This document shows positions 9,101-38,944 of a stretch of DNA of 38,944 nt, piece by piece. The stretch's first letter is position 1. Every line of letters starts with the position of its first letter. The translations under genes were made by a program, and so were the position numbers. A model generated the notes under the pieces. The model ran no database searches and was not told where the DNA came from. It saw only the letters and a list, made by a program, of their open reading frames with translations. The stretch lies in contig JAZLEH010000172.1 in NCBI GenBank assembly GCA_045615165.1, positions 1 to 38,944 on the forward strand. Reading direction: 5' to 3'. Origin of the DNA: Eubacteriales bacterium (GTDB lineage Bacteria; Bacillota; Clostridia; Oscillospirales; CAG-272).

Positions 9101-10510
9101 CTAAACGTTCGTTATATCGTCTATCTGCTTTTTTGCCCAACCCGATTTTTCGTAGTCGCCATTCGCGTTATAAACTCTGCGCATAACGTACGCGGCGGTG
9201 TAGCTCGAATTTTTCTCACCCGTCGAAATATCCTCGTACGCGCCGATAGCAATATAAGGAATGAAACGCATTCCGCGCGAAAGCGTATGCCAAGTGGTTT
9301 GCATAAAGCCGAAGAGCTCCTCGCTTTTTATGGTTTGAACACCTACCTCGACGACCTTTGCGCTCTTGTCGCGGTGGCATAGAAGAACGTCAAAGCCTGC
9401 GTTTTTGAGGGTGACGCAGGTTTCTACGGGAGGGATAACCGCATCGTATTGCCAGTCCGCTATGATTATGCTCCTGTCGAGCCTTCCTAACATATATTTT
9501 TCATCCTCGGGGGTGGGAGCGTTGCAGGTGTATAGGTTTCCTTTGTTATAGCTCTCGTGTCTGTGAATGAACATATCGCCCCAGGCAATCGCGCGCCTGC
9601 CTTTTTTGTTAAGCTCCGCGCTTATTTCGTTTATATATTCGGTTATAAAGTCGCACTCTTCCTTTGAATAATTGAATCCGTGCGCTTCGTCGCAGCCGAT
9701 GTGGAAGTATTTGCCTTCGCCGCAAAGCTCGATAAGCTCTTCTCTTGCCAAGCGAAGGAGCTCTCTGACTTTTTTCTTTTCTATCGCCCAGCACCAGCCG
9801 TTTTTGCTGAAGTACGAAGCGAGCGAAATATTCTGATCAAGCACTACGTGCTTTCCGTGCATTTCTCGCGAGAGGGATGCGTGTCCCCAGTGGTTGAACA
9901 TCGGAACTATTTCAAGACCTAAGTCACGCGCCTCGTTAATTATCGGGCGAAGCTCGTCTTTTGAGTAAGCTTCCTTCCAGCCAAGCTCACGCATACAGTC
10001 GAATTTGAGCATTCCCCAGAATTCTATTACGACGTGCGTGAATTTAAGCGCGGCGCATAATCTTAAAAACTTCTGTAATTCCCAAAGCTCTGTTTCCGGG
10101 AAAATGCAGAAATGCGCCATTCTGTTTTTTATAAGCGCGCTGTCACGTATCTCTGCGCACTCAATCTCTATCGCAAGCTCTTCGTTGTCGTCGATTGGAT
10201 CAAACCTGTCAAGAAGCGTCATAAAGCCCGCGAGCAAGGTCTTTTCGTCCTTAGCGTTTATCGCAACGCCGCTCTCTTCAATATTTATAGTGTATTCCGC
10301 ATCGTCGAGAGCGAGTGGCTTCGCATTGCCTATAATAAATGCGTAGTCCTTGATCTCCTTAACCTCAAGCGTAGAAGCGTGGCAGGAGTAATTATACCAA
10401 AACTCCTTTAGTACATCTTTATTTATAGAAGAATTTGCTGTGGCGCATATCTCTTTTGAAAATACGAACGCGCCGTCCTTTTTTACAAGATTCGTGGGCT
10501 GAAAGATCAT
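9101..10510 (-). CDS. GH20-like protein, class B (tandem paralog of 7482..8888)
   Basis: I prefer ATG 10510 (MIFQPTNLVKKDGAFVFSKE...). It has an AAGGAG Shine-Dalgarno 5 nt upstream and aligns with the start of the paralog (MVFNPRNLIKKDGAFVFSKE). The track start at 10543 would overlap the upstream gene. Motifs: NHWGHA, FHIGCDEAHGF. Confidence 0.6.
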   Translation of the reverse strand: MIFQPTNLVKKDGAFVFSKEICATANSSINKDVLKEFWYNYSCHASTLEVKEIKDYAFIIGNAKPLALDDAEYTINIEESGVAINAKDEKTLLAGFMTLLDRFDPIDDNEELAIEIECAEIRDSALIKNRMAHFCIFPETELWELQKFLRLCAALKFTHVVIEFWGMLKFDCMRELGWKEAYSKDELRPIINEARDLGLEIVPMFNHWGHASLSREMHGKHVVLDQNISLASYFSKNGWCWAIEKKKVRELLRLAREELIELCGEGKYFHIGCDEAHGFNYSKEECDFITEYINEISAELNKKGRRAIAWGDMFIHRHESYNKGNLYTCNAPTPEDEKYMLGRLDRSIIIADWQYDAVIPPVETCVTLKNAGFDVLLCHRDKSAKVVEVGVQTIKSEELFGFMQTTWHTLSRGMRFIPYIAIGAYEDISTGEKNSSYTAAYVMRRVYNANGDYEKSGWAKKQIDDITNV

Positions 10511-10521
10511 TTTTTCTCCTT

Positions 10522-12831
10522 TTATCTTTGTACGAGAGGACATTCTATTACACAGCGATGAACCGTTGTCGGACGGTAGGAAAGGATTCTGTCGGCTTTC
10601 TTCATCGCGTCTGCAAGATTTTCCTCGGTTATATTTTCGGGAACTTCAAAGTTTGAATCAGATCCCGTATATTTGTGTCCCTCTTCGCCGCAGAGCGCGT
10701 ATTTCTTCGACCAGTCGCACGCCTTTCCGTCTGCGGGGATCCATTTATAATTTTTACCGTTAAGTTTGATGCGAGTCATATTGCTTGCGCGAAGTGCATT
10801 CGCGGGGCAGGCCTTAACGCACTTGTCGCATCCGTCACAGCATTTTGAGTCTGCGAGTCTCTTTGCTTTAACTACCTCGTCAAGCGGAGCATCGGTAACG
10901 ATCGCGATAAAATCTTGGCTGAATCCGTGCTCCTCGGTATAACACATGCCGTTAACTGTGAGCTTTCCGATTCCTGCCTCAACCGCTTCAAGCTGATTAC
11001 AGAACGCATCGGGAAGCGCTCCTCTCGGAGTTCCCATATCGCCGCCGATACCCGTCAGGTTATAGGTCGCAACCGCCTTGTAGCCCTTTCCTGCAAGATA
11101 CTTTTCAACCTTGAATGATGCGTATGCAAGCTCAAAGGTTGTCTCGTATTTTGAGTACATATAAGGGCCAACCGCAAACGCAGGGGGCTTAATAGTCATT
11201 TTCTGCACGATCTCGGGGTAGTTTATGCCCATTATGATAACGCTCTTTGCATTTTCGAGATGGTCGGTCGTTTTATATATCTTTCTCGTATATGTCTTGG
11301 AGCTTGGCTCAAAGATATGGAATCTTGGAGTTTTGGATGCCATATCAATTATCTCTTCGCCTTCTTTGATCGGAACGAGCGCCTCTGCAAGCTTATCCAT
11401 TCTTTCTGCAGGGACGATCGCGTAAATATCGCTTCCTTCCTTTTCCATTATATCACAAATGTTATCGGTAATGCAATACTTAATATTATCAATCGGCTCG
11501 TTGAGCTCGTAATACTCGTATCGCGAAAGGGGGGCGTTCGTGAGCAATACTTCGGTAATGGTAATCTCGTTTTCCTTTTTCTCGATGCCTGCCGCCGCAA
11601 GATATGCATCGGTGTCTACCTCGGGGCTATTTAGCGTCTTATAACCGTAATCGTCAATGATTCTTGCAGCGTCAAGACGTGCAAATCCCGAGAAGTGCGC
11701 AAGGGCGGTCTGCTCGGCGCTTATAGTGCCGAAGCTCTCGTTGCCGTAACCGTTTCTTGCGTTTATTTTGTCGCCCTGTGCCTGAGCTGTTTTGATGGTC
11801 GAAATAGTCATAACGACAGCGCCGTTTGCATATTCGTAGGCATCCCTTGCCCTAAGCTTTTCAATATCCTTTTTGCCGAGGAAGACTATATTGTCTACGC
11901 TATAACGGGAAACAAAATTAACCACCTCGTCGTATAATTTTCTGTGAACGGGGAGATCAAGGTTGGCAACGCAATGCTTTATTCTCATCGGTGCTGAGGT
12001 GTGCTCACCGCCGTCGCTTCTTAAATGCTTGGGGAGGCAGAATTTAACACAGCATCCCATCTCTCCGCCGCGCATACCGTATTTATCGATGTTGTCGAGT
12101 ATAACCTGTTCGTCAACTACATCGGGAATTTCAAGGTCAAGATCAAGATCAAAATGCTCAGCCCACGCGCACCGCCAGAGGTTTTTGTTCGCAAATTTAA
12201 ACACTTTGTCCTCGACCTCAATCGTCTTAACTCCGTTGCATTCCTTGCGGTAAGCATCCGTCGGGCAATGCTTAATACACTCGCCGCACATATCGCAAAG
12301 CTTGGTTTCGACATACATCGGGGTGGGGGAGGGGGGCGCGTTCGTTATTATGGATATAAATCTGTTTCTCGGGCCGTATTCGGGCGACATTGTAAGTCCG
12401 TGCCAGCCAAGTTGTCCGAGTCCTGCACAGGTTGCTGCGTATATATGTGACATATCGGGGGCAAAGGTCGCGCTAAGCTCGCCAAACGGGCGGTATCTCC
12501 AGATGTTCGATGCGGCGATCGGAACAGCCTCGTACCCGAGCCTATCAAGATAACGCGCAACCCTAAATGCTATGTAATCAAGCTTTAAATTCATAACGTA
12601 CTGAATTGAGTACGGACCTATGATCTGCGGATGCTCCTCACCGCCAAGCTCCATCGCTTCGTCAAGATGGTGAATCGCGCACACGATAACGCTCTTTGCC
12701 GTCGGCAAAATACCCTGCGGGCTCATCATTATCGGCGCGTTTTTAAATCGGGATATCGGCGCGATTCCGACGATGTCCGCACCTATTTCATAAGCGCATG
12801 CTTTAACTTTAGAAGTAAGATTTGTGTTCAT
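10522..12831 (-). CDS. fused two-module RdhA/QueG-superfamily-like iron-sulfur protein
   Basis: 769 aa. Module 1 (about residues 1-300) has CAYEIGADIVGIAP, TAKSVIV, AATCAGLGQLGWHGLTMSPEYGP, then CDMCGECIKHCP plus further Cys residues. Module 2 (about residues 470-769) has NAKSVIIMGI, EAVEAGIGKL....EEHGF, then CDGCDKCVKACP and CVIECP. There is no Tat signal and no TM helix. The stop is 11 nt upstream of the next gene's ATG. Confidence 0.6.
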   Translation of the reverse strand: MNTNLTSKVKACAYEIGADIVGIAPISRFKNAPIMMSPQGILPTAKSVIVCAIHHLDEAMELGGEEHPQIIGPYSIQYVMNLKLDYIAFRVARYLDRLGYEAVPIAASNIWRYRPFGELSATFAPDMSHIYAATCAGLGQLGWHGLTMSPEYGPRNRFISIITNAPPSPTPMYVETKLCDMCGECIKHCPTDAYRKECNGVKTIEVEDKVFKFANKNLWRCAWAEHFDLDLDLEIPDVVDEQVILDNIDKYGMRGGEMGCCVKFCLPKHLRSDGGEHTSAPMRIKHCVANLDLPVHRKLYDEVVNFVSRYSVDNIVFLGKKDIEKLRARDAYEYANGAVVMTISTIKTAQAQGDKINARNGYGNESFGTISAEQTALAHFSGFARLDAARIIDDYGYKTLNSPEVDTDAYLAAAGIEKKENEITITEVLLTNAPLSRYEYYELNEPIDNIKYCITDNICDIMEKEGSDIYAIVPAERMDKLAEALVPIKEGEEIIDMASKTPRFHIFEPSSKTYTRKIYKTTDHLENAKSVIIMGINYPEIVQKMTIKPPAFAVGPYMYSKYETTFELAYASFKVEKYLAGKGYKAVATYNLTGIGGDMGTPRGALPDAFCNQLEAVEAGIGKLTVNGMCYTEEHGFSQDFIAIVTDAPLDEVVKAKRLADSKCCDGCDKCVKACPANALRASNMTRIKLNGKNYKWIPADGKACDWSKKYALCGEEGHKYTGSDSNFEVPENITEENLADAMKKADRILSYRPTTVHRCVIECPLVQR

Positions 12832-12972: not shown

Positions 12973-13722
12973 ATGATCTACGATTTTGAAGAGCTTTTGT
13001 TTCAAATAAAAGACGTGTGCAGGATCGATCATCCAAAGGGCACGTTTAAGGTGCGCCCAAGACCGTATGCGGCACTTTCGTACAGAGTTTCGGGGTGCGG
13101 CGATTTTATTTTCGGCGGGGAAAGAGTCGTTTCGGATGCAGGCGATATTCTTTTTATACCGGAAGGGGTTTCATACGACGTTTCCTATTCCGGCGGAACG
13201 ATGATCGTCGTTCATTTCCACGATTGCAATTACCATATTCCCGAAAATATTTCGTTTGCCAACAAAGCTTATATGGCAGACGTGTTCTTCGATCTTTTGA
13301 AGGAGTGGGAAAGCAGGCGCTCGACACACGTTGTCAAGTCCACGGTATATAGCATTATGCAGTTTTGCAGTGAATCAAATCAAAAGGAGCATTCAATTCA
13401 TTCCGCAGAGCTTGCAAAGCAGATCATAGATAACGGCTTCCGCGATTCCGAGTTCAGTGTCAACTCGCTTGTTCAAATGCTTTATACAAGCTATCCCACC
13501 TTGCGCCGCAATTTTTTAAAGCGATACGGTATGCCCCCGAAGCAATATCTTCTGAAATTGCGCCTTGATACCGCCGTCACTCTCTTGTCCGAGGGGTTTT
13601 TATCGGTTCAGGAAATTTCGAAAAGATGCGGATTTGACGATGCGCGCCATTTTTCGCAGATATTTAAGGAAAAATACGGAGTCTCGCCATCTAAAGTATC
13701 GCACAATTTATTGTTAAAATGA
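12973..13722 (+). CDS. AraC-family transcriptional regulator (cupin-like sensor + HTH)
   Basis: 249 aa. The N-terminal beta-rich region has GDILFIPEGVSY. The C-terminal dual-HTH signature is TLRRNFLKRYGMPPKQYLLKLRLDTA...VQEISKRCGFDDARHFSQIFKEKYGVSP. It is divergent from the RdhA-like/GH20-like operon. Confidence 0.9.
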   Translation: MIYDFEELLFQIKDVCRIDHPKGTFKVRPRPYAALSYRVSGCGDFIFGGERVVSDAGDILFIPEGVSYDVSYSGGTMIVVHFHDCNYHIPENISFANKAYMADVFFDLLKEWESRRSTHVVKSTVYSIMQFCSESNQKEHSIHSAELAKQIIDNGFRDSEFSVNSLVQMLYTSYPTLRRNFLKRYGMPPKQYLLKLRLDTAVTLLSEGFLSVQEISKRCGFDDARHFSQIFKEKYGVSPSKVSHNLLLK

Positions 13723-19287: not shown

Positions 19288-19455
19288 TTACTCCTCAACA
19301 GGTGCTCCAACGGGGCAGGACTCTGCGCAGTTTCCGCAGCTGATGCACTCGTCAGCGTTGATAACGTAGATATCGCCTTCGGAAATGCAGGATACGGGGC
19401 ATTCGGATGCGCAAGCGCCGCAAGCGATGCAATCTTCAGTAATCTTGTATGCCAT
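19288..19455 (-). CDS. fdx: clostridial-type 2x[4Fe-4S] ferredoxin (55 aa), not in the ORF track
   Basis: My manual reverse-complement translation gives MAYKITEDCIACGACASECPVSCISEGDIYVINADECISCGNCAESCPVGAPVEE*. It contains two CxxCxxCxxxCP motifs. A GGAGG Shine-Dalgarno lies 8 nt upstream of ATG 19455. The gene has its own promoter and terminator. Confidence 0.9.
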   Translation of the reverse strand: MAYKITEDCIACGACASECPVSCISEGDIYVINADECISCGNCAESCPVGAPVEE

Positions 19456-21694: not shown

Positions 21695-21768
21695 TATTTT
21701 GAAGTAATATGCGCACCCTGCGCCAAAAAACATTTTCAGGCTCGTTTTACGGGCGGACGGGAGTTTTT

Positions 21769-23640
21769 ATGAGGTTAAAATTTTGTGGCTTGACCGATGA
21801 GATGCGCGGAATCGAGATTCTCGCCGATGAGATCGGAATCAATGTCGTTTCCGAGTCGGAGGATATTACCGTAAGCGTTGAGTGCATCGGTGATAGTGCC
21901 GTTTCGGTATCTCTTAACGGAAAGTCGGCGGATATAAAATACGGCGGCGGTAAGTCGAAATTATATAGAGGTATCGCGATCCTTGCAAGCTGGCTTCGCG
22001 AGGGAAGAACTGCGGGCAAAATATCCGAAAAGCCTATCTTCTCGCTTGACGGCTCTATGGTCGATATGTCGCGCAACGCCGTTATGAATGTAAAAACGGT
22101 TAAATTTATGCTTCGCAAAATGGCTCTTATGGGAATGAACGCGTTTATGCTTTATACCGAGGATACCTACGAAATCGAGGGCAGAGCATATTTCGGTTAT
22201 ATGCGAGGCAGATATACTAAGGAGGAGATCCGCGAGCTTGATGCCTACGCAATAAGCCTCGGAATCGAGCTTATCCCCTGCATTCAGGTGCTCGGTCACC
22301 TCGCAACCCACCTCCGCTGGACACAGGCGGTATCCTACCGCGACACGATAAACGCTCTTCTTGTCGGTGCGGATGAAACCTACACCCTTATTGACGATAT
22401 GTTCAGAACTATCGCAGAGTGCTTCACCTCTAGAAGACTTCATATGGGTATGGACGAAACGCACGATCTCGGCACTGGCGCATATCTTGATAAGAACGGC
22501 TACTCTCCGAGAGAGACCGTTTACCTCGACCATCTTTCAAAGGTTGTACAGATCGCTCATAAATACGGCTTTAAGCCTATGATGTGGTCGGATATGTTCT
22601 ACGAGCTTTCGGCTAAGGACGGTATGCGCGCGTATAACCCCGCAATCGAGATCACCGAGGAATCAATAAAGAGAGTTCCGAAGGGCGTTCAGCAGGTTTA
22701 TTGGGATTATTATCACGACGACGTTGATTATTATATGCAGAATATCGAAAAGCATAAGCTCCTCGGAGAGAACACGATGTTCGCAGGTGGTATATGGTGC
22801 TGGGGCGGACACTGCCCGCAGTTCAGACGCTCGCTTTGGTATACCAAGCCTGCTCTCGAGGCTTGTAAAAAGGGCGGTATCAAGGAGATAATAGCTACCG
22901 TATGGCATAACGGCTCGGAGTGCAGCCTCGTTCTTTCGGTAGCGGCTCTCGCTTGGTATGCGGCATACGATTATTCGGGCGAATTTGATATCGACCTTAT
23001 AAAAAGAACCTTTGCTCTTGCTTGTCCCGATGCAAGCTATGACGATTTTATGGCGACCGATATCCCCGAGTTTCCACACGGAGGAAAAGAGGGACTCACC
23101 CGTGCGATCCTCTATAACGACCCCCTCGTAGGTCTTATCGACGCGCACCTCACCCGCTATAATATGAAAGAGTATTACGAGAATGCAAGCGCGCGCTTAA
23201 AGGATGCAGGACGGGATCTTGCCGTATTTAAGTACGCATTTGAGGTCGTATATAAGCTCTCCGTCCTTCTTGAAAACAAAGCGGACTACGGTATAAGATT
23301 AAAGGCGGCGTACGACAGAGGCGACAGAGAAGCGCTTAAGCTTCTTGCCGACGAATGCGATGCTATTATACCGAAGATAAGAGACCTCAGAGATGCTCAC
23401 AGAAAGGCTTGGCTTGAGCATAACAAGCCGTTCGGCTGGGAGGTGCACGATATTCGCTTCGGCGGACTCGTAATGAGATTCGAAACCGCGAAGATGCGAA
23501 TCACCGATTATCTTCTCGGAAACATCGATAAAATCGAGGAGCTCGAAGCCGAAAGATATCCATTTATCGGAAGCGCGGATAACGCTGACAATAACTGGCG
23601 CGGATATCCGGGAATCGCATCGGTATCGAGATTTGATTAA
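21769..23640 (+). CDS. GH20-like protein, class C (long form with N-terminal domain), no signal peptide
   Basis: I prefer ATG 21769 (MRLKFCGL..., GGGAG 5 nt upstream). The track ORF opens at 21709. Motifs: SMVDMSRNAV (compare the GH20 MLDxxR entry), IPCIQVLGHL and LHMGMDETHDLG (G-x-D-E pair). Confidence 0.65.
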   Translation: MRLKFCGLTDEMRGIEILADEIGINVVSESEDITVSVECIGDSAVSVSLNGKSADIKYGGGKSKLYRGIAILASWLREGRTAGKISEKPIFSLDGSMVDMSRNAVMNVKTVKFMLRKMALMGMNAFMLYTEDTYEIEGRAYFGYMRGRYTKEEIRELDAYAISLGIELIPCIQVLGHLATHLRWTQAVSYRDTINALLVGADETYTLIDDMFRTIAECFTSRRLHMGMDETHDLGTGAYLDKNGYSPRETVYLDHLSKVVQIAHKYGFKPMMWSDMFYELSAKDGMRAYNPAIEITEESIKRVPKGVQQVYWDYYHDDVDYYMQNIEKHKLLGENTMFAGGIWCWGGHCPQFRRSLWYTKPALEACKKGGIKEIIATVWHNGSECSLVLSVAALAWYAAYDYSGEFDIDLIKRTFALACPDASYDDFMATDIPEFPHGGKEGLTRAILYNDPLVGLIDAHLTRYNMKEYYENASARLKDAGRDLAVFKYAFEVVYKLSVLLENKADYGIRLKAAYDRGDREALKLLADECDAIIPKIRDLRDAHRKAWLEHNKPFGWEVHDIRFGGLVMRFETAKMRITDYLLGNIDKIEELEAERYPFIGSADNADNNWRGYPGIASVSRFD

Positions 23641-29655: not shown

Positions 29656-29753
29656 AGTGGGGAATAAATCTCTTAAATATCTGATTTATCGCGTTTAAAT
29701 TCTCACAATTTTCAAAATCTACACATAAAAGTGTGGACGATTCCCTTAAATAC

Positions 29754-29786
29754 AAAAAAGCCTTTTCGCAAGGAAAAGGCTTTTTT
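29754..29786. terminator. bidirectional intrinsic terminator
   Basis: AAAAAA-GCCTTTTC-GCAAG-GAAAAGGC-TTTTTT, lying between eno (+) and the stop of the Gfo/Idh/MocA gene (29795, -). Confidence 0.85.
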
Positions 29787-29794
29787 GTATTGCT

Positions 29795-31054
29795 TTATTT
29801 GGTTTTCCAATCGAGAACTTCCCAATCGGACGGAGCATCGCCAAGGTCGATAACGTCCATAAGCTCGCCGCCCGCAAGTGCGGATTTGTGCGCCGTGAGT
29901 CCGGGAATATTCCATCTCGCAACCTCCCAAATGTTACAAGGGGAGAGCTTGCCGGTCGCATAAGCACGGCAGAAATCGTCGATAAGGAAGTGATGAGTTC
30001 CGTTGTGACCGTTGTGGATTCCCTCAAATTCCTTCGGGAGTCTCTCGGTCGGCTGAACGGGAGAGGTAAGTCTGAATCCGAAGCCGTCTGCAATCTGCTG
30101 GATAGCCTCGTCGTAATTTTCGTTTATCATTTCGGTGGCTTCCTTGGGCATAAGCTTGTCGGTAACGTCAGTCATAGTAACGCTTGTGGGATCATCCTCG
30201 CGGAATTTTGCAAGGTGATGCTTCGCAACCGAAAATTCGTATGCGCCGTCAGTGCCGTAATACTGCGAAATATAGGTTTCGGGTGCGCGCCAACCAACGC
30301 ATCTGTTCTCGCTGATTCTTGCAACACCGCCGTTTGAAAGCTGAAGAAGCATCGTCGTGTTGGAGAACGGGTTGTTGTAAAGGTTCTGTCCGTCAGTGCC
30401 GTAAATATCGGTTCTCGGGCTTCCTGCAAATCCGAGCGCGGAAACCTTCTTCGCATAAACACCCGGCATAGTGCTGAGGATCATTGCAGTTGAGTGGGTG
30501 GGGTAGTACATAGGGGGGATTCCCGCGAACTTCTTCCAGTCCTCTCCGCCGGAGCTTCTGAAGCTGTTTTCCATATTTCTTATATCGTGGTTGTAGTGCG
30601 CTTCGCCGTAAGCAAATTCACCGAAAGTGCCCTTTGCATATTCCTCGCGGCAGAAGATCGCGGGTGCTCTGTAAAATCCGGTCTCTCCCATAGAGTAGGT
30701 GAGTCTCGTCTCTCTTACGAGTCTTTCGATCTCCTTAATCTCCTCGATGTCGATCGAGCAGGGAACTGAGCTATAAACGTGCTTTCCCGCCTTAAGTGCC
30801 TTGATCGCCATACCGCCGTGGAGGTATCTCTGCGTGAATATCGCAATGGAGTTTACCTCGCTTGAAGCAAGTGCCTCTTCAAAGCTACCGATTATATCAA
30901 CTCCGAACTGCTCGGAATAAGCCTTTGCTCTCTCGGGGATAAGGTCGCAAACGTAAACCTTTTTAACCTCGGGATGTGCCTTGAAGAGCGGAACGAAGTT
31001 CTTTGCAAATCTTCCGCATCCGATCACCGCAATAACTATTTTATCCTTTTTCAT
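29795..31054 (-). CDS. Gfo/Idh/MocA-family NAD(P)-dependent oxidoreductase (divergent)
   Basis: 419 aa. N-terminal Rossmann IAVIGCGRFA...VCDL and ALKAGKHVYSSVP, where SVP replaces the canonical EKP. It is the last gene of the minus-strand operon. Its ATG is 3 nt after the upstream stop. Confidence 0.75.
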   Translation of the reverse strand: MKKDKIVIAVIGCGRFAKNFVPLFKAHPEVKKVYVCDLIPERAKAYSEQFGVDIIGSFEEALASSEVNSIAIFTQRYLHGGMAIKALKAGKHVYSSVPCSIDIEEIKEIERLVRETRLTYSMGETGFYRAPAIFCREEYAKGTFGEFAYGEAHYNHDIRNMENSFRSSGGEDWKKFAGIPPMYYPTHSTAMILSTMPGVYAKKVSALGFAGSPRTDIYGTDGQNLYNNPFSNTTMLLQLSNGGVARISENRCVGWRAPETYISQYYGTDGAYEFSVAKHHLAKFREDDPTSVTMTDVTDKLMPKEATEMINENYDEAIQQIADGFGFRLTSPVQPTERLPKEFEGIHNGHNGTHHFLIDDFCRAYATGKLSPCNIWEVARWNIPGLTAHKSALAGGELMDVIDLGDAPSDWEVLDWKTK

Positions 31055-31057
31055 GCC

Positions 31058-32539
31058 TTAAACCTCTTTCTTAAATATCATATAACCGTCAATACCCTCA
31101 AACACGTATTGACCGCTTCTTTTAACGAGCATCGTTGCCTCGTCACCCGTGAATGCTATATGTATCGCAAGACAGCCAAAGAAGGTGTCCGTTACCTGTA
31201 AGAGAATTGCAAAGGTGTCCTTATCGACCCATCCTGCGGAGCTGTTCGCATCATACGTGCCCTCCTCGTAAACGCCCATCATATCGGCGCGCGCACGAGT
31301 GCCAAAGGAGAATTTCGTCTCCTTGTTTTTAAGAATTCCGAATTCAAGCGTAAGCTCTTTTCCATCCATTCCTATGTTAAGAGAATCCTTGTTAAGAGTG
31401 AATGAATCGAAGGGAAGGTGACCCTTCACCTTGTTATACTTAGCTCCGATAACCTCACCCGAGATCCTTGAATCAGCCTCTCCGTATTGCGCAACGAGCT
31501 CGCGCGATGAAAGGTATTCCGTAAGTGCCAAAGAAGACTTTTTATTCTTTCTAAGCGGTTTGTTTGCGACTTTAGGGAGAAAGTGCTTGTAATACTCGTG
31601 GAAGAGCACGTGTCTCTCCGTTTTTTCCGCCTGGTTATCCGATGTTATAACGAAGCAAATATCGTTCTTCATATCGCATATCGCAAGCTGATCGCCCATG
31701 CCCGTAAGGGTGAATCCGTCGGGATGCGTTTTCCATATAAGATATCCGTATCCCTGCGTGCTATAAAGGCTATGCGTGCCCGTAAAATCGTTGTGCGAAA
31801 GCTTCTTTATCGCATCCTCCATAAAGGTGCGGTCGATATACTGCTTTCCGCCCCATTCGCCGCCTCTCATTATAAAGCGCGCGAATATGAGAAGATCCTT
31901 TGCCGTGCACATAACGCCCGAGTCGCCTATGGCGTAGCCGCCCGGCTCGCGCAAAACGTAGCTCTCCTTTGAAAATCCGAGATCGTAAAGGCAGTTTTCC
32001 TTAAGATATTCAAGGAAGGTCTTTCCCGTGAGCTTTTCAATAATGCATCCAAGCAGGAATGAGCCGATACTGTCGTACTTATAGAGTCCGCCCGGTACTT
32101 TATCGCTCGTTTGCGTGTAGTACGCCTTAACTCTGTCGTCGAATTTGCCCCACCAGTTAACGCCCGTTCCAATGTTTGAGCGCATCATAAGCATATCCCT
32201 GATAGTGCATTTTCCGTAATACTCGTCAAAGTTTTCGTTCTTGTATTCGGGGAGGTAGTCGGTAATTACGTCATCGAGCTTAAAGAGTCCGTTCGTGATA
32301 GCAAGCCCTGTCGCAATACCCGTAAAGCTCTTTGAAACGGAGTACATTCTGTGAAGAAAGTCCTTGTTAAAGGGCTTGTAATGGCACTCTGCGAATATAT
32401 TCTCGCCCTTTGCCATAATTATCGAGTGCGTGTGCATCCTGCGCTCGTCAAGAGTTTTTATAAAATCAAGAACGAGCTCGGATGAAACTCCCGCCTCTTC
32501 GGGAGTTATATAGCTGAAGATGTCCATATCATCACTCAT
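31058..32539 (-). CDS. beta-lactamase-fold serine hydrolase (class C / PBP4-like family)
   Basis: 493 aa. S-x-x-K nucleophile motif (YSVSKSF) at about residue 67. No signal peptide. ATG 32539 overlaps the upstream gene by 8 nt. An alternative ATG at 32527 lies 4 nt after that stop. Confidence 0.7.
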   Translation of the reverse strand: MSDDMDIFSYITPEEAGVSSELVLDFIKTLDERRMHTHSIIMAKGENIFAECHYKPFNKDFLHRMYSVSKSFTGIATGLAITNGLFKLDDVITDYLPEYKNENFDEYYGKCTIRDMLMMRSNIGTGVNWWGKFDDRVKAYYTQTSDKVPGGLYKYDSIGSFLLGCIIEKLTGKTFLEYLKENCLYDLGFSKESYVLREPGGYAIGDSGVMCTAKDLLIFARFIMRGGEWGGKQYIDRTFMEDAIKKLSHNDFTGTHSLYSTQGYGYLIWKTHPDGFTLTGMGDQLAICDMKNDICFVITSDNQAEKTERHVLFHEYYKHFLPKVANKPLRKNKKSSLALTEYLSSRELVAQYGEADSRISGEVIGAKYNKVKGHLPFDSFTLNKDSLNIGMDGKELTLEFGILKNKETKFSFGTRARADMMGVYEEGTYDANSSAGWVDKDTFAILLQVTDTFFGCLAIHIAFTGDEATMLVKRSGQYVFEGIDGYMIFKKEV

Positions 32540-33509
32540 CCTTCGTAAAATCCCATTCTTTTTCGCGCTTTAAGGTCTCGTACTGCTTCGTTGAGAGCTT
32601 CCAATCCTCGCCCTCTCTGAATTTAGTCTTAAAGCTCTTTTTAAGAACGCCCTTTTCCTCAAGGTGGATGTAGCAGGCCCTGTCACACGCTCTTCCGCAA
32701 ATCGATGTGCGGTAGAAATGCTTTGACGGAGGATAGAAATAGGTCGCGCGAAGAATGTCCTGCGCCTCTTCAACCGAGAACTCGGCAACTCCGTTTATGA
32801 TATCGAGTCTGTTATCGAATCCGATATACGCCTCAGGGGGCATAAAGGGGTTCTTCGAGCCGTTTGCACCGTTGTAATATACCGCGCATCTCCAGGTGTC
32901 AACAGTGCCGTCCTCTCCGATAGCACCGCCGTGGCACGCCTTGATGCACTCGCCGCAATTATCGCAGAGCGAGGGCTCTTCAAGCTCGGTCTGTTCTATC
33001 ACAGCATCCGTAAGGATGAAGCAGTAGCGGATAAACGGACCGTACTCGTTATTTATAATAGTATTTTTGATGCTTCTTTCACCGAGTCCGCATTTTACAG
33101 CGCAGTCAATAAAATCGATCTGATGCTCTGCAGTAACGCCGTGTCTTACGAACTCAAAGTCAACCTCGGGGTTTGTGCCCTCGGTCTCGTTCATAATAAG
33201 CTGGTTTCTTCTCTGCGGAATTGCGAGGAAGCCCTCTTCCTCGATGAGGTTTGAAACGTTTATAAGCGCGAGGGGCATAACCGTTTCCTCAAGGTTTTCA
33301 ATGCCCATCGTGGTGTACTGATAATAGGTCGTGCCCTCTTCAACTGTGCGGTACGCTCCGCGAAGCACTCTGAAGCCGAGACCGATAACGGTCTTAACGC
33401 TCGGCATTATATCGAAGATCGCATCGCCCTTATCAAATCTTTCGATCGAAGCAAATCCAACTACGTCTGCATCGTATCTTTTTGCAAGCTCAATTATCTT
33501 CTGCTTCAT
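32532..33509 (-). CDS. RdhA/QueG-superfamily-like iron-sulfur protein (paralog 3)
   Basis: 325 aa. LAKRYDADVVGFAS, VKTVIGLGF, AVKCGLGE....NNEYGP, then CDNCGECIKACH and CGRACDRAC. Its ATG overlaps the upstream stop as ATGA (33506..33509). Confidence 0.6.
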   Translation of the reverse strand: MKQKIIELAKRYDADVVGFASIERFDKGDAIFDIMPSVKTVIGLGFRVLRGAYRTVEEGTTYYQYTTMGIENLEETVMPLALINVSNLIEEEGFLAIPQRRNQLIMNETEGTNPEVDFEFVRHGVTAEHQIDFIDCAVKCGLGERSIKNTIINNEYGPFIRYCFILTDAVIEQTELEEPSLCDNCGECIKACHGGAIGEDGTVDTWRCAVYYNGANGSKNPFMPPEAYIGFDNRLDIINGVAEFSVEEAQDILRATYFYPPSKHFYRTSICGRACDRACYIHLEEKGVLKKSFKTKFREGEDWKLSTKQYETLKREKEWDFTKDE

Positions 33510-34408
33510 ATCTTATTCTCCTTTTTAAGATGCTCGTAGCAAACCGTCTCGCATCCCTTTGCGCAAAGGCAGGGAACGTAGCCAAAATGCGTGTTCGGGA
33601 GGAAATCAAGGCTCGGATACAAAGCCGTTGCCGATTCCTTGTCGAATCTCTTCTCACCGTTAAGTATAGCCTCTCTCTCGGGGTGTTCCTTAAGGAAATC
33701 GTCGGTCATAAACGGGTTGGATTTATGCGCACCTCTGTAATAAACACTGCATTGCCAGCTATCAGGGCCGTTTTCGTCAATGGCTTTACCCGGGCAGGCA
33801 TCAAGGCACTTGCCGCATCCGTCGCAAAGGCTCTCGCCAAACGGCTCGTCAAATTCAAGCGGCATATCCGTTATAATGAAAACGAAACGCATAAAAGTTC
33901 CGTATTTCGGGGTTATGATCTTGCCGTGCATACCAACCTTGCCGAGTCCGCAAACCTCTGCGGCGCGGTTAAAGTCTATAAGAACCTCGGGCGCGGGCTT
34001 GCCCTCTTCAACGGGGCAGGAATGCACGAGCTCGTAAACCTGTGAAACCTCGGGATTCATCGTCTTGTCGCCCTTAAGCTTAAGACCCGGAACGGTTCTT
34101 TGAAGGCAGGCATCGTATCCCGCGTTTTCAATAACGTTACCTATTCTGAAAAGGAATATTTCGGAGAAGGATTCGTCAATATACTTAACTCCGAGATTAA
34201 CGTAGTTATAATATTGGCTCTTGTCCTTCATCGCGGCGTAAAGACCGCGCGGAACTTTAATTCCGAATCCGATTATGCTCTTTGCTTTCGGGAGAATAGA
34301 GAAAGGGTTTCTCTCCGCGGGCTCGTCTCTCATAAGCTCAACGTTTCCGACGCCGCATATAGTCGCGCCGAACTTTTTCGCAAGCTCTTTTATGTATTCA
34401 CTCGTCAT
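33506..34408 (-). CDS. RdhA/QueG-superfamily-like iron-sulfur protein (paralog 2)
   Basis: I prefer ATG 34408 (MTSEYIKELAKKFGATICGVGN..., GAGGTG Shine-Dalgarno 6 nt upstream), giving 300 aa. The track start at 34498 would overlap the upstream gene by 80 nt. Motifs: KAKSIIGFGI, AAEVCGLGKVGMHGKIITPKYGT, CDGCGKCLDACP, CLCAKGCETVC. Confidence 0.6.
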   Translation of the reverse strand: MTSEYIKELAKKFGATICGVGNVELMRDEPAERNPFSILPKAKSIIGFGIKVPRGLYAAMKDKSQYYNYVNLGVKYIDESFSEIFLFRIGNVIENAGYDACLQRTVPGLKLKGDKTMNPEVSQVYELVHSCPVEEGKPAPEVLIDFNRAAEVCGLGKVGMHGKIITPKYGTFMRFVFIITDMPLEFDEPFGESLCDGCGKCLDACPGKAIDENGPDSWQCSVYYRGAHKSNPFMTDDFLKEHPEREAILNGEKRFDKESATALYPSLDFLPNTHFGYVPCLCAKGCETVCYEHLKKENKI

Positions 34409-34418
34409 TTCATTCACC

Positions 34419-35498
34419 TCATCTGTCAAGCTTCCAAGCTTTTTTCGTGCGGAGCGGCTCTTTGAAGCGGCCTTCCATACATCCGCCCTTCTTTTCAAGC
34501 ATACTTACGCAAGCGCGTATGCAACCGCCGCACTTAGCCATATTGTAGCCGACCCAGCTCGGGAAATATTTCTGAAGTGCAAGATAAACGTTTGTAACCG
34601 TCTGCTCGTTTGCGTTAGTACCCGGTTTTTCAAGCACGTCAAGAAGTCCGTCCTCGTTCTTGTCGAATACCTCTTTGGGAACGAACGGGTTGAAGTATCT
34701 GCCCGCGTGGGTGTAGAACGCGTAGCACTTCCACATATCGATATCTCCCCACTCGCAGATCTTTCCTGCAAGGTTGACCGTCTTTTTCATCTCCGAATTG
34801 ATCGGGGGAATGCATCCGCCGGGGCACTCTCTAACGCACGCGCCGCACTTTCTGCAAAGCGGCTCGCCGGAGTACATCTCGTCGTATTCAAGCTCCGCGT
34901 CGGTGAAGATGAACGCAACTCGCTGAAGCGGTCCGAATTCGGGGGTAAGAAGCATTTTCGACCAACCTATCTCTCCAAGACCGCAGGCAACCGCCGCGAG
35001 TCTGAACTGGAACTGAAGATCCGGGGGAACTTTATCCTCCGAAACCTCACGGGTGAACTGAACGCTTCTGTGGTGCGCGGTCTTAGTTCTTGCGCGCTTA
35101 CTCGCCTCGATCTGCTCCTCGGGGGAGATCGTGTTTCCGGGGCTTCCGTCCATATCCGAAACGATACCTCTCGCACCTGTGTTTCTGTAAACGACGGCTT
35201 CATAGCCCTCGTCCTCAATAACTCTTCCTACGTGGTGAAGAACTGCGGGGGCGTATATCTCGTTGATACCGCCGTAAGCCATAGAGGGATACTGATAGAA
35301 CTGCGTACCCTCCTCAATTCCTCTCTGAACGCCCCTCGGAATTCTGAACGCAAATCCGATAACGCTCTTCGCGTTCGGGAAAAGGTATCTGGGATCCATT
35401 TCCTTGGGCGCACCCTCAAAGCGTGACATAGGCGCGATGCCGCATTTATCTGCTCCCGCCTCGTATGCCGCTTTCTTGATCATTTCACTGGTCAGCAT
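34419..35498 (-). CDS. RdhA/QueG-superfamily-like iron-sulfur protein (paralog 1)
   Basis: I prefer ATG 35498 (MLTSEMIKKAAYEAGADKCGIAP...). The track's TTG at 35510 falls inside the GGAGG Shine-Dalgarno. Motifs: NAKSVIGFAF, AAVACGLGEIGWSKMLLTPEFGP, CRKCGACVRECP, WKCYAFY, KCGGCIRAC. No Tat signal or TM helix. Confidence 0.6.
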   Translation of the reverse strand: MLTSEMIKKAAYEAGADKCGIAPMSRFEGAPKEMDPRYLFPNAKSVIGFAFRIPRGVQRGIEEGTQFYQYPSMAYGGINEIYAPAVLHHVGRVIEDEGYEAVVYRNTGARGIVSDMDGSPGNTISPEEQIEASKRARTKTAHHRSVQFTREVSEDKVPPDLQFQFRLAAVACGLGEIGWSKMLLTPEFGPLQRVAFIFTDAELEYDEMYSGEPLCRKCGACVRECPGGCIPPINSEMKKTVNLAGKICEWGDIDMWKCYAFYTHAGRYFNPFVPKEVFDKNEDGLLDVLEKPGTNANEQTVTNVYLALQKYFPSWVGYNMAKCGGCIRACVSMLEKKGGCMEGRFKEPLRTKKAWKLDR

Positions 35499-35536
35499 AT
35501 AAACCTCCAAAAAATGCTTAAATTTTATCCTCTGTA

Positions 35537-35565
35537 TTGACTATATCATAAATTGATGATATAAT
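35537..35565 (+). promoter_or_regulatory. near-consensus sigmaA promoter of the second AraC-family gene
   Basis: TTGACT (35537..35542), 17-nt spacer, TATAAT (35560..35565). Confidence 0.6.
35542..35563. promoter_or_regulatory. candidate operator: 8-bp perfect inverted repeat overlapping the promoter
   Basis: TATATCAT (35542..35549), 6 nt, ATGATATA (35556..35563). It spans the spacer and -10 of the AraC promoter in the divergent intergenic region. Confidence 0.3.
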
Positions 35566-35614
35566 CTATAATAAAACCATCAAAAAATATAACAAATCAA
35601 ACTTGGAGTGAAAA

Positions 35615-36460
35615 ATGGAACTTTATAAGCTCACCCCGCATATAAGGCACGCGCGCCGTCATATAGCAAAGATATTCACGCGCAGGGAGGTAACAATATG
35701 CTACGATGCCCGCCTCTTCTATTTTGAAAAGGTTGAGGGCTTCATCACGGCAAACGGAGCAAAATATAACGTATCAAATAAAACCGCGCTCTATCTTCCG
35801 CCCCTTACGAGATATACCTTTAATCTCAAATTTTCGCAAAACTCGGAGATAACCGTTTTCAACTTTGACCTGACGGATAAATACAGTCATATAAGGCAGT
35901 CGTTCGGCACGCCGACGGTCACCGAGTTCGATCCATCGTTAGCGCCGATCTATCCCGTTCCGTCCGAGTTTTCAAGCCCCCTTTCAATAAAGTCAAAGAA
36001 GATCGCGCCGCTTATCAGCTCATCTCTCGAAAGCTTTACTCGCGCAGGCGGCGTATATCTTGACCGCGCATCCGCATACCTTAAGCTCGTTTTGCTGGAG
36101 CTTATTGATTCAACCGAGCTTTCGTATTCCAAGCTCTGCACCTCTGTTATGGAATACGTTTCGCTTCATTATAACGACCCGCAGATGACGAACGCCTCGG
36201 TCGCCGAGGCTATGAATTATCATCCGTATTATATAAATAGGGTAGTGAAAAGCGAGCTTGGATGTCCACTCCGCGCCTATATCATCGACTATCGTCTTGA
36301 ACGCGCAAAGGAGCTTCTTTTGTCGCTTGACGATAACGTTTCCGAAATCGCCCTTAAATCGGGCTTCTCCTCCTCGTCCTATTTCGTGAAGCTTTTTAAG
36401 GAAAAGGAGTCCGTAACTCCCCTTGAATACAGAAAGAAAAACGCTTCCTTGCAACTTTAA
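35615..36460 (+). CDS. AraC-family transcriptional regulator
   Basis: 281 aa. The N-terminal region is cupin-like. The C-terminal HTH is ...VAEAMNYHPYYINRVVKSELGCPLRAYIIDYRLERAKELL...VSEIALKSGFSSSSYFVKLFKEKESVTPLEYRK. GGAGTG Shine-Dalgarno. It is divergent from the RdhA-like operon. Confidence 0.9.
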   Translation: MELYKLTPHIRHARRHIAKIFTRREVTICYDARLFYFEKVEGFITANGAKYNVSNKTALYLPPLTRYTFNLKFSQNSEITVFNFDLTDKYSHIRQSFGTPTVTEFDPSLAPIYPVPSEFSSPLSIKSKKIAPLISSSLESFTRAGGVYLDRASAYLKLVLLELIDSTELSYSKLCTSVMEYVSLHYNDPQMTNASVAEAMNYHPYYINRVVKSELGCPLRAYIIDYRLERAKELLLSLDDNVSEIALKSGFSSSSYFVKLFKEKESVTPLEYRKKNASLQL

Positions 36461-36493: not shown

Positions 36494-36522
36494 TTGACAA
36501 TAATTCCACCATAAATTATAAT
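36494..36522 (+). promoter_or_regulatory. consensus sigmaA promoter of the tandem class-C GH20-like genes
   Basis: TTGACA (36494..36499), 17-nt spacer, TATAAT (36517..36522). An AAGGAGA Shine-Dalgarno precedes ATG 36554. Confidence 0.6.
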
Positions 36523-36553: not shown

Positions 36554-38182
36554 ATGAAAAAATACAAGCCTGAAACCTTTGGAGTGATGCTTGATCTTTC
36601 GCGTAATGCCGTGATGAGCATCGATTCATTTAAAAAGTATCTTGAATATCTCAAAAAAATGGGATATAACTGTGTTTATTTCTATAACGAGGATGCCTAC
36701 GAGGTAGACGGCGAGCCCTACTTCGGCTATCTTCGCGGAAGATATACTAAGGCAGAGATGAAGGAGCTCGACGAGTACGCATACTCCCTCGGAATAGAGA
36801 TCATCCCCTGCATACAGACTCTCGCGCATCTTGAATCATATCTTCGTTGGGAGGACAGAATTAAGGACGTAACCAATGTTCTTATGATAGACGAGCCCCG
36901 CACCTACGAGTTTATCGATAATCTTATCCGCACGGTGAGCGAATGCTTCCGCACTCGCAGAATACATATCGGTATGGATGAGGCGTGGATGCTCGGAAGA
37001 GGCAACCATCAGAAAAAGTACGGCATCGAGGACGAGATATCGCTTATGAAGCGCCACCTCGAAAAAGTTAACGATATAGTTAAAAAGTACGGATGCCGCT
37101 CAATAATCTGGTCGGATATGTTCATTCGCCCCTGGAATGGCGGTGCATATACGAAGATCGTTGACGGTAATGGCGTGCTCGAAGTTCCGAAGAACGTTAT
37201 CGATAGCGTTCCCGACGGAGTTGAGCTCGTTTATTGGGATTATTACAGTGAAGTGAAACAGCATTATTACGACCAGTTCGCAACCCACGCGCAGTTCGGT
37301 AAGGAGCTTTGGTTTGCGGGCGGCGTTTGGGCTTGGCGAAGCTTCGTTCCGAATAACCACTATTCAATACAGACGATGCTCCCCGCGATCGATGCCTGCC
37401 GTGAGTTCGGCATCAAGCACGTCGTTATGACGATATGGGGGGATAACGGATGCGAATGCTCGCGTTACGCAACTCTTCCCGCGCTCCACTATATCGCGGA
37501 GTATATGAGAGGGAATACCGACGAGGAGAATATCAAGGCAAAATTCAAGCGCATCTTCGGCGCGGATTACGATGCGTTTATGCTCCTTGACGAGCTTGAC
37601 GTTATAAACCTTTCCTACAATCGCAACGAAAGAGCCTCGCGTAAGGTCCTCTTCCAGGATGTTTTCTCGGGCTTCCTCGATACCGCCGTCAAGGAGGGAC
37701 ACGGAGAGGTGTTCGCATCTCTTGCCGAAAAGTACCGCGAATATGCGAAAAAGTACAGAAAATGGGCGTACCTCTTCGATAATACCGCAAAAATGGCAGA
37801 TGTTTTCGCTGTTAAATACGAGCTCGGCGTAAAAACGAGAAGAGCCTATAAGGCAGGGGATAAGGAGGAGCTTTTGAGGCTCGCAAACGAGGATTACAAA
37901 GTCCTTTCAAAGCGCCTTACGGCATTCCTCAAATCCTTTAGAAAGCAATGGTATCTTGAAAACAAAACCTATGGATTTGACGTTCAGGAAATGCGCGTCG
38001 CAAGCGTAAAGGTAAGAATCGATTCCTGCCGCGAACGCCTTCTTGATTACGCTAAGGGTAAGATCGATAAGATAGAAGAGCTTTGCGACGAGCTTATTCC
38101 GATCGGCGTTGACAGCGTTTTCTATAAAAAGAGCGACTACGACTTCCTCGCAACCACAAGCACCCTTTGGGGTCATCAATAA
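36554..38182 (+). CDS. GH20-like protein, class C (short form, catalytic domain only), no signal peptide
   Basis: 542 aa. GVMLDLSRNAV, IPCIQTLAHL and IHIGMDEAWMLG (G-x-D-E pair). It is a paralog of 21769..23640 without that gene's N-terminal domain of about 90 aa. Confidence 0.65.
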   Translation: MKKYKPETFGVMLDLSRNAVMSIDSFKKYLEYLKKMGYNCVYFYNEDAYEVDGEPYFGYLRGRYTKAEMKELDEYAYSLGIEIIPCIQTLAHLESYLRWEDRIKDVTNVLMIDEPRTYEFIDNLIRTVSECFRTRRIHIGMDEAWMLGRGNHQKKYGIEDEISLMKRHLEKVNDIVKKYGCRSIIWSDMFIRPWNGGAYTKIVDGNGVLEVPKNVIDSVPDGVELVYWDYYSEVKQHYYDQFATHAQFGKELWFAGGVWAWRSFVPNNHYSIQTMLPAIDACREFGIKHVVMTIWGDNGCECSRYATLPALHYIAEYMRGNTDEENIKAKFKRIFGADYDAFMLLDELDVINLSYNRNERASRKVLFQDVFSGFLDTAVKEGHGEVFASLAEKYREYAKKYRKWAYLFDNTAKMADVFAVKYELGVKTRRAYKAGDKEELLRLANEDYKVLSKRLTAFLKSFRKQWYLENKTYGFDVQEMRVASVKVRIDSCRERLLDYAKGKIDKIEELCDELIPIGVDSVFYKKSDYDFLATTSTLWGHQ

Positions 38183-38195
38183 AAGGAGAATCAAA

Positions 38196-38944
38196 ATGAA
38201 AAAATATAAGCCCGAAACCTTCGGCGTGATGCTTGACCTCTCGCGTAACGCCGTAATGAGCATTGATTCTTTCAAAAAGTATCTTGAATATCTCAAAAAG
38301 ATGGGATATAACTGCGTTTATTTCTATAACGAGGACGCATACGAGGTCGAAGGGGAAAAGTTCTTCGGCTATCTTCGCGGAAGATATACTAAGGCAGAGA
38401 TGAAGGAGCTTGACGATTATGCCTACTCCCTCGGAATTGAGATCATCCCCTGCATACAGACTCTCGCGCACCTCGAATCCTACCTCAGATGGGAGGAAAA
38501 CCTCCGCGACGTTCCGAACGTCCTTATGGTAGACGATCCCCGTACTTACGAGCTTATCGATAACCTCATCCGCACCGTGAGCGAGTGCTTCCGTACACGC
38601 AGGATTCACGTCGGAATGGACGAGGCGTGGATGCTTGGAAGGGGAAGACATCAGAAGATATACGGCGCAGAGGATCAGATATCTATTATGCGCCGCCACC
38701 TCAATAAGGTAAACGACATCGTTAAAAAGTACGGATGCCACGCGATCGTTTGGTCGGATATGTTTATCTGCCCCTGGAGCGGCGGAGTTTACACCAACCT
38801 CGGCGCAAAGGGCGTTGCCGAAGTTCCGAAGGATGCTATCGAAGCAGTTCCCGACGGAGTTGAGCTCGTTTATTGGGATTATTATCACGACACGAAGCAG
38901 CATTTCCTCAACCAGTTCGCAACCCACGCGCAGTTCGGTAAAGA
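38196..38944 (+). CDS. GH20-like protein, class C, tandem paralog (3' end beyond the window)
   Basis: ATG 38196 with an AAGGAGA Shine-Dalgarno. It reads MKKYKPETFGVMLDLSRNAVMSIDSFKKYLEYLKKMGYNCVYFYNEDAYEVEGEKFFGY...IHVGMDEAWMLG... and stays open to the window end. It is missing from the ORF track because it has no stop. Confidence 0.7.
   Translation, partial: MKKYKPETFGVMLDLSRNAVMSIDSFKKYLEYLKKMGYNCVYFYNEDAYEVEGEKFFGYLRGRYTKAEMKELDDYAYSLGIEIIPCIQTLAHLESYLRWEENLRDVPNVLMVDDPRTYELIDNLIRTVSECFRTRRIHVGMDEAWMLGRGRHQKIYGAEDQISIMRRHLNKVNDIVKKYGCHAIVWSDMFICPWSGGVYTNLGAKGVAEVPKDAIEAVPDGVELVYWDYYHDTKQHFLNQFATHAQFGK

Follow-up and report, generated by a model that had tools for sequence, protein, structure and literature searches.

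What do three neighbouring, related iron–sulfur proteins do together in an uncultured member of the Clostridia? The question is raised by a five-gene operon on contig JAZLEH010000172.1 (assembly GCA_045615165.1) of an Eubacteriales bacterium, which was analysed over a stretch of 38,944 nucleotides (nt), referred to here as the window. Three of the genes encode paralogs, named A, B and C, that an earlier reading of this DNA (the original prediction) had likened to reductive dehalogenases (RdhA) and epoxyqueuosine reductases (QueG), with the suggestion that they might form a multi-subunit assembly. Profile and structure searches place all three in this superfamily, and the comparative evidence favors, at a probability of roughly 55%, an AraC-induced, cytoplasmic, heterotrimeric corrinoid/Fe-S reductase made of A, B and C that takes a leaving group off a hydroxylated metabolite. 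The three genes are the following, with lengths in amino acids (aa).

34419-35498, minus strand: paralog A, 359 aa, an open reading frame (ORF) with a ribosome-binding site, encoding a nitroreductase-like module plus a 2x[4Fe-4S] ferredoxin domain
33506-34408, minus strand: paralog B, 300 aa, with the two-domain layout of A
32532-33509, minus strand: paralog C, 325 aa, with the layout of A and all eight cluster cysteines kept

By sequence profile and fold, A, B and C belong to the class III B12 (RdhA/QueG) superfamily, as originally claimed. They are 33-35% identical to one another over their full lengths, a paralogy well beyond chance (tblastn E-values of 1e-41 to 1e-51). Pfam gave sub-threshold ferredoxin motifs only, and the hidden Markov model (HMM) searches first suggested for these proteins found that both relevant NCBIfam models match A, B and C below their cut-offs. 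The RDH model (TIGR02486) produced partial matches of 42 bits for A, 57 for B and 27 for C against a curated cut-off of 160, and the QueG model (TIGR00276) produced 29, 50 and 34 bits against a curated cut-off of 200, with E-values of 9e-11 (RDH) and 5e-7 (QueG) for A and of 1.3e-8 (QueG) and 3.7e-6 (RDH) for C. Matches were likewise partial and sub-threshold across the family, where 78/80 members matched the QueG model and 77/80 the RDH model. A phmmer search of the PDB with B retrieved QueG (5d08, 1.3e-10), PceA (4uqu, 1.4e-8) and NpRdhA (2.7e-4), and a profile of the family matched PceA at 1.4e-22, QueG at 7e-14 and NpRdhA at 2e-11, with the N-terminal part weakly collinear too. An AlphaFold2 model of B (predicted local distance difference test score, pLDDT, 94.2; predicted template modeling score, pTM, 0.91) was compared with the PDB using Foldseek. 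The first 45 matches were solely QueG, PceA and NpRdhA (probability 1.0, TMq 0.41-0.51), with QueG ranking first (1.2e-10); next came CblD and MMACHC, B12 chaperones with a nitroreductase-like cobalamin fold. The fold part of the structural comparison first proposed thus came out as expected for B, and membership by fold follows from the profile matches, the Foldseek matches and the cysteine pattern.

The motifs from which the superfamily had been recognized are present in all three paralogs, namely GAD..G, AKS.IG, CGLG...TPE(F/Y)GP, CX2CX2CX3C, a single Cys and CX2-3CX3C. The cysteine elements, arranged as CX2CX2CX3C...C...CX2-3CX3C, supply eight cysteines for two [4Fe-4S] clusters in each of A, B and C and are invariant in 80 orthologs of each; in A these are Cys215/218/221/225, Cys258 and Cys323/326/330, and the last element in B and C reads CX3CX3C. 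QueG ligates two [4Fe-4S] clusters through the same eight-cysteine pattern (PMC5175355). No Tat-like (twin-arginine) RR motif was found in A, B or C, and no hydrophobic segment, with no 19-residue window above a Kyte-Doolittle mean of 1.7, bearing out the predicted absence of a twin-arginine leader and a transmembrane helix. Neither a DYH or similar motif, DYH being the catalytic motif of QueG (PMC4646009), nor a C-terminal HEAT domain was found in the three proteins, whose chains end just 10-46 residues past the last motif cysteine, and the ORF list of the operon contains no rdhB-like small membrane-protein gene. The claimed lack of the QueG C-terminal domain, a Tat leader and rdhB therefore stands. 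Because of these absences, and of scores far under both cut-offs, A, B and C are, judged by sequence, neither QueG nor canonical RdhA.

The three paralogs are conserved to different degrees. Across 80 species, positions that are at least 97% invariant make up 67% of A and 37% each of B and C, and those of A include an insertion found in A only (residues 108-152) and the GLGEIGWSKMLLTPEFGPLQR loop. In the same species, an invariant GLG...TPEFGP..R loop in A corresponds to one that is conserved in part in B and to a variable one in C, and the C stretch GLGERSIKNTIINNEYGP, in the corrinoid-loop region, varies among orthologs, so that this region of C is relaxed. The strongest similarity to PceA, QueG and NpRdhA falls in the GLG...TPEFGP..R segment, including the residue aligned to the catalytic Arg/Lys: an invariant Arg (R193 in A, R174 in B and R161 in C) is the HMM alignment partner of the catalytic PceA Arg305 and NpRdhA Lys488, and QueG carries Tyr at this position. 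Since conservation is much higher in A than in B or C, and the corrinoid-loop region of C is relaxed, we infer a heterotrimer in which A would be the catalytic subunit and B and C would be paralogous partners that retain their clusters.

The rest of the operon and its boundaries comprise the following features.

31058-32539, minus strand: D, a beta-lactamase-fold serine hydrolase of 493 aa, an accessory gene (PF00144, 4.8e-26)
29795-31054, minus strand: E, a divergent Gfo/Idh/MocA-fold oxidoreductase of 419 aa (PF01408, 1.4e-17)
35615-36460, plus strand: an AraC-family regulator of 281 aa, divergent from A (Pfam HTH_18, 4.4e-21)
35535-35601: the conserved divergent promoter/operator region, about 65 bp long, upstream of both the AraC gene and the operon
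29749-29791: a bidirectional intrinsic terminator common to the operon and the convergent enolase gene, with a 19-bp stem between A and T runs

An ORF check recovered the five minus-strand genes where they had been reported, forming a unit from 35498 to 29795 that is bounded by the divergent AraC gene and the bidirectional terminator. The junctions also match those first described: a 10-nt gap between A and B with GAGGTGA ahead of the ATG (read from the sequence), an ATGA overlap of 4 nt between B and C with AAGGAG upstream, an 8-nt overlap between C and D and a 3-nt gap between D and E. A purine-rich ribosome-binding site is present at each operon junction, the start of A is preceded by GGAGG 7 nt before the ATG, and 116 bp separate A from the AraC gene. 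Pfam backed the identities proposed for the neighbors (AraC HTH_18 4e-21, beta-lactamase 5e-26, GFO_IDH_MocA 1e-17, and Glyco_H_20C_C 4e-47 for a GH20C gene).

Homologs of the trio are numerous. A large protein collection contains 1724 homologs of B at E <= 0.001; identity lies at 70-99% for the best 120, and named sources, of which there are few, are uncultured Clostridia. Homologs of A are distributed like those of B and are annotated just as hypothetical or ferredoxin. A scan with one genome per species found a B ortholog in 134 species, the best 80 of which are all represented by metagenome-assembled genomes (MAGs) from goat, sheep, deer and buffalo rumen or hindgut and from human gut, with names such as Faecousia, Acutalibacteraceae, Oscillospiraceae and similar. 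Protein clusters of the A/B/C family reach hundreds of members, yet the family is without a curated family model; no recorded protein is identical to B, and a literature search of incomplete coverage found no published description of the family. For the gene neighborhood, ORFs were called in the loci of the best 80 of the 134 species and labeled by BLAST against the window proteins. The scan used a narrower alignment, the broad one being too diverse, and the denominators below are the loci in which a feature could be assessed.

80/80 loci: A-B-C in fixed order
at least 48/80 loci: a 4-nt overlap of B and C
59/63 loci: a divergent AraC gene within 2.6 kb upstream
55/63 loci: a 325-aa Cys-rich U32-like gene directly before A
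34/52 loci: a cupin gene of about 123 aa, mostly between A and B
45/58 loci: an ortholog of E downstream of C
9/58 loci: an ortholog of D downstream of C
3/58 loci: a GH20C gene downstream of C

The order of the trio is thus kept in every one of the 80 species and is not unique to this genome, and the divergence from an AraC gene, proposed from this locus, proved to be conserved. Of the functional partners named in the original prediction, the Gfo/Idh/MocA protein E recurs, and the GH20C and beta-lactamase-fold genes rarely do. Because the U32-like and cupin genes of most relatives have no homolog anywhere in the window (BLAST), the window operon is, by its gene content, one of the less common forms of a system that is strongly conserved; several relatives also carry A-B-C without the U32-like gene. 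In the U32-like gene (for example L001, 7918-8895, 325 aa) invariant residues include C79, C173, C188, C192 and C221, a spacing that we take to resemble the Fe-S ligands of UbiV-type U32 proteins. Its assignment to U32 is tentative: weak Peptidase_U32 (PF01136) matches were found in just 12/45 members, and its profile had no sequence match in the PDB. The cupin (L033, 7646-8017, and 47 further loci) has as its sole solved relative CA_C3497, an uncharacterised structural-genomics protein of Clostridium acetobutylicum (3d0j, 1.9e-16).

Conservation extends to the intergenic DNA that the AraC gene and the operon share. A comparison of the window, L001 and the orthologous regions L005-L084 found shared boxes in 63/70 loci, consisting of the 17-mer TTTGTTTTGTTATATTT (<=3 mismatches), TTATACATTATAnCA 21 bp further and TATA(A/G)TCAATA, which lie at 35601-35535 in the window. 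A promoter-like site on the plus strand at 35537-35565 matches at 11/12 positions. These boxes look like overlapping divergent promoters together with an AraC-type direct-repeat operator.

A second member of the family in the window has three modules in a single chain and stands beside an AraC gene of its own.

10522-12831, minus strand: F, a fused homolog of 769 aa, with modules at residues 1-291 (full), 292-452 (degenerate) and 453-769 (full)
12973-13722, plus strand: an AraC gene divergent from F

Two weak GH20-like genes come next after F at this locus, at 9101-10543 and 7482-8888, both on the minus strand. F consists of three nitroreductase-like modules according to its secondary structure and profile-profile comparison. 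The modules at residues 1-291 and 453-769 are complete, Fe-S domain included, and both are closest to A. In residues 292-452, equidistant from A, B and C, neither the GLG...TPEYGP loop nor the ferredoxin domain is present; this part is homologous to the module by hhalign against the family (probability 99.1-99.7%), although single-sequence comparison of this middle domain with the family was not significant. The AlphaFold2 model of F (pLDDT 92.3, pTM 0.93) packs the modules confidently, and Foldseek returned NpRdhA as its top match, over the whole length. Catabolic RdhAs carry a second, vestigial copy of the core domain that is free of cobalamin, and through it they imitate the interface at which two PceA monomers meet in the dimer (PMC10463259); the architecture of F echoes, by analogy, this vestigial copy as seen in NpRdhA. 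Because F stands alone with its AraC gene in L127, an 83%-identical relative, the three-module unit is, to go by gene content, self-sufficient. About 30 representative clusters are F-sized fusions, and 18/31 F-type proteins match Pfam PF08331 (QueG_DUF1730). The neighbors of F-type genes in 40 metagenome loci include IclR regulators, CUT1-type sugar ABC permeases with binding proteins, and sensor kinase/AraC-type pairs; these recurrent neighbors link the wider family to the uptake of carbohydrate-like compounds, though to no single one of them. The fixed A-B-C order, the conserved B/C overlap and the three-module fusion F, together with the precedent of NpRdhA and PceA, argue for one complex and give the multi-subunit idea strong comparative support.

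We propose that A, B and C would be the three subunits of one cytoplasmic class III B12 (RdhA/QueG) superfamily reductase, each consisting of a nitroreductase-like module fused to a ferredoxin domain with two [4Fe-4S] clusters. A would hold the active corrinoid site, and B and especially C would serve as partner modules, packed on A as the vestigial domain is packed in NpRdhA, or the second monomer in PceA, with their clusters retained as an electron path. Low-potential electrons, probably derived from ferredoxin, would pass through the clusters to the cofactor, which would reductively strip a leaving group from a small molecule. The AraC regulator would turn the operon on through the conserved operator when the substrate or a precursor is present, E would act on the same hydroxylated substrate or an intermediate, and D would be an optional trimming enzyme.

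Such an enzyme would share much with the known members of the superfamily and still differ from each. Like catabolic RdhAs of the NpRdhA/BhbA type (4ras, 6zxu), the proteins are cytoplasmic, without Tat leader or RdhB anchor, and combine a nitroreductase-like module, here predicted to bind corrinoid, with a 2x[4Fe-4S] domain; an extra duplicated module packed on the active one is also a likely common trait, and the counterpart of the catalytic Lys488 is an invariant Arg. In contrast to that type, there are three modules, separate or fused, rather than two, the Fe-S domains are kept in at least two and usually all three modules, no PDOR reductase domain is fused, and the context is AraC plus Gfo/Idh/MocA and not aromatic catabolism, at an identity of only ~12-17%. 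With respiratory PceA (4uqu, 8q4h) they share the best profile match (1.4e-22), the Fe-S pattern and the equivalent of Arg305, and PceA, too, is an assembly of like modules, a dimer; however, a heteromer of paralogs in place of a homodimer is proposed here, and the Tat signal, the anchor gene and the N- and C-terminal extensions are missing, with scores below the TIGR02486 cut-off. QueG (5d08, 5d6s) is the top Foldseek match of B, has the same cysteine pattern and is related to F-type proteins through QueG_DUF1730, but its HEAT-repeat tRNA-binding domain and DYH motif are missing here, it has Tyr in place of the invariant Arg, and it is a single-copy housekeeping gene as opposed to three AraC-controlled paralogs.

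The best PDB match of E is DgpA, the C-glycoside 3''-dehydrogenase (7xr9, 1.4e-15), and the match covers the first 155 residues only, that is, the N-terminal Rossmann part. In the Gfo/Idh/MocA family the EKP motif holds the catalytic lysine; DgpA has EKP at this position, whereas E (residues 95-98) and all 56 of its orthologs have SVP. D carries an SVSK motif that is conserved among its orthologs, and among solved structures 6-aminohexanoate-dimer hydrolase, Lsa45 and ClbP come closest to it. A role for D as a bile-acid succinyl transferase was rejected: the 3-succinylated cholic acid synthase model matched it over the full length, at 146 bits against a cut-off of 800.

Several points weigh against the heterotrimeric corrinoid reductase. 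It is the fold, and only the fold, that suggests corrinoid binding by A, B and C, because cobalamin binding has no diagnostic signature in the sequences of class III enzymes (PMC4646009) and no cofactor was observed. Around the operon, neither the window nor seven related loci showed a cobalamin riboswitch or a B12 gene, and Rfam detected no riboswitch in the window as a whole and none beside the operon in those seven loci. The invariant tyrosines Y70 of A, Y69 of B and Y65 of C are no more than possible counterparts of the Tyr that caps the corrin (QueG Tyr101, PceA Tyr246). None of the three paralogs is plainly vestigial, because each retains all eight cysteines. The operon contains no electron donor or transporter gene, and, because the catalytic lysine of EKP is replaced, the activity of E is uncertain and it may not be a dehydrogenase at all.

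The first two of these points also speak for an alternative that we hold to be possible but doubtful, in which the RdhA/QueG fold works without corrinoid, as an Fe-S electron-transfer complex, perhaps with a flavin or with no organic cofactor, that feeds another enzyme such as the U32-like protein. There is no cobalamin motif by which sequence could test it (PMC4646009), the superfamily does include cobalamin-free vestigial domains (PMC10463259), a U32-like gene precedes A in 55/63 loci, and the six clusters of the trio are many for one active site. However, A-B-C is kept without that gene in the window and several relatives, the segment most similar to PceA, QueG and NpRdhA is invariant in A, and Foldseek ranks B12 binders at the top and not flavin nitroreductases.

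It is unlikely that A, B and C are instead three independent single-subunit reductases with differing substrates, placed side by side like the multiple rdhA genes of organohalide respirers. Each does have the conserved Arg and lacks none of the cluster cysteines, QueG has been reported to be monomeric (PMC5175355), and the protein library contains many homologs of 280-370 aa with a single module. Against this, the three occur 1:1:1 in fixed order with conserved translational coupling of B and C, their conservation is strongly unequal, with a relaxed loop in C, and a three-module fusion exists.

Less probable still is a cytoplasmic catabolic reductive dehalogenase acting on a natural or dietary organohalide. 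The best solved-structure matches of the family profile are PceA proteins, the invariant Arg aligns with PceA Arg305 and NpRdhA Lys488, and catabolic RdhAs are cytoplasmic with a duplicated module (PMC10463259), yet the RDH scores of 27-57 bits stand against a cut-off of 160, the operon is widespread in MAGs from ruminant rumen or hindgut and human gut, where no abundant organohalide is obvious, and it is accompanied by a sugar-type regulator and a Gfo/Idh/MocA protein, with F-type homologs in sugar-uptake loci. It is very improbable that A, B and C modify tRNA, as epoxyqueuosine reductases or as relatives of these, in spite of the agreement in cysteine pattern and of a QueG annotation given to several orthologs by JGI, given 29-50 bits against a cut-off of 200, the lack of DYH motif and HEAT domain behind the last cysteine and the presence of three copies in an AraC-controlled operon.

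The GH20-like genes near the operon had suggested an amino-sugar pathway. The nearest of them is the following.

36554-38182, plus strand: a GH20C-type hexosaminidase-like gene (Glyco_H_20C_C, 4e-47), a neighbor and not a conserved partner

This gene has its own consensus promoter (TTGACA-17-TATAAT, 36494-36522). GH20 enzymes were rejected as general functional partners, as they adjoin the trio in 3/58 loci and are not recurrent beside F-type genes. With GH20C after the trio this rarely and D in 9/58 loci, the amino-sugar reading of the operon is weak, and the GH20 neighborhood reflects the eight GH20-like genes of this genome rather than a conserved link. These eight genes, counting both halves of a split one, lie within 39 kb at an unusual density (2908-5118, 5190-7400, 7482-8888, 9101-10543, 21709-23640, 36554-38182 and 38196-38944) and are interspersed with the housekeeping genes holB, metG, tatD, eno and rsmI. 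The copy from 38196 is in tandem with the GH20C gene, 83% identical to it, and reaches the right end of the window at 38944. The split gene is the second of two tandem 736-aa GH20b genes (5190-7400, plus strand), in which an in-frame stop near 6300-6302 leaves same-frame ORFs at 5190-6302 and 6447-7400. Its counterpart is intact, at 97% amino-acid identity, in contig L125 (ENA contig ERZ28633363, TONG22-1_SAMN15871222 scaffold_367), and the interruption is either a pseudogene or a sequencing error. The same contig is 95.4% identical in nucleotides to positions 524-22833 of the window, which points to the same or a sister species, an uncultured Clostridia MAG. Elsewhere in the window, between a PSP1-domain gene and a methyltransferase gene, a 55-aa clostridial-type 2x[4Fe-4S] ferredoxin is encoded at 19288-19455 on the minus strand, a possible but unspecific electron donor.

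To our knowledge, class III B12 enzymes have only two established chemistries, reductive dehalogenation and epoxyqueuosine reduction. As a tentative extension of the heterotrimer proposal, A, B and C may represent a third functional branch, one that reductively cleaves a C-O bond, or another bond of carbon to a heteroatom, in a hydroxylated metabolite derived from sugars or plants, perhaps within a so far unrecognised catabolic or electron-sink pathway, common among Oscillospirales-type Clostridia in the guts of humans and herbivores, that would also involve the U32-like Fe-S protein, the cupin and the atypical Gfo/Idh/MocA protein. The fold and the cofactor scaffold are familiar ones; what would be new is a heteromer of three modules, its genomic setting and, probably, the reaction. 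The authors of the QueG structure noted that further uncharacterised class III families might exist and would be hard to find by sequence (PMC4646009). The A/B/C family is a concrete candidate for one, present in at least 134 species-level genomes, of uncultured gut and rumen Clostridia only, and with three paralogous modules, separate or fused, its architecture is undescribed for the superfamily. The conserved AraC regulator and operator offer an experimental handle on the inducer and, through the inducer, on the substrate. If the proposal is true, a new corrinoid-dependent reaction of gut anaerobes would bear on why these organisms compete for corrinoids.

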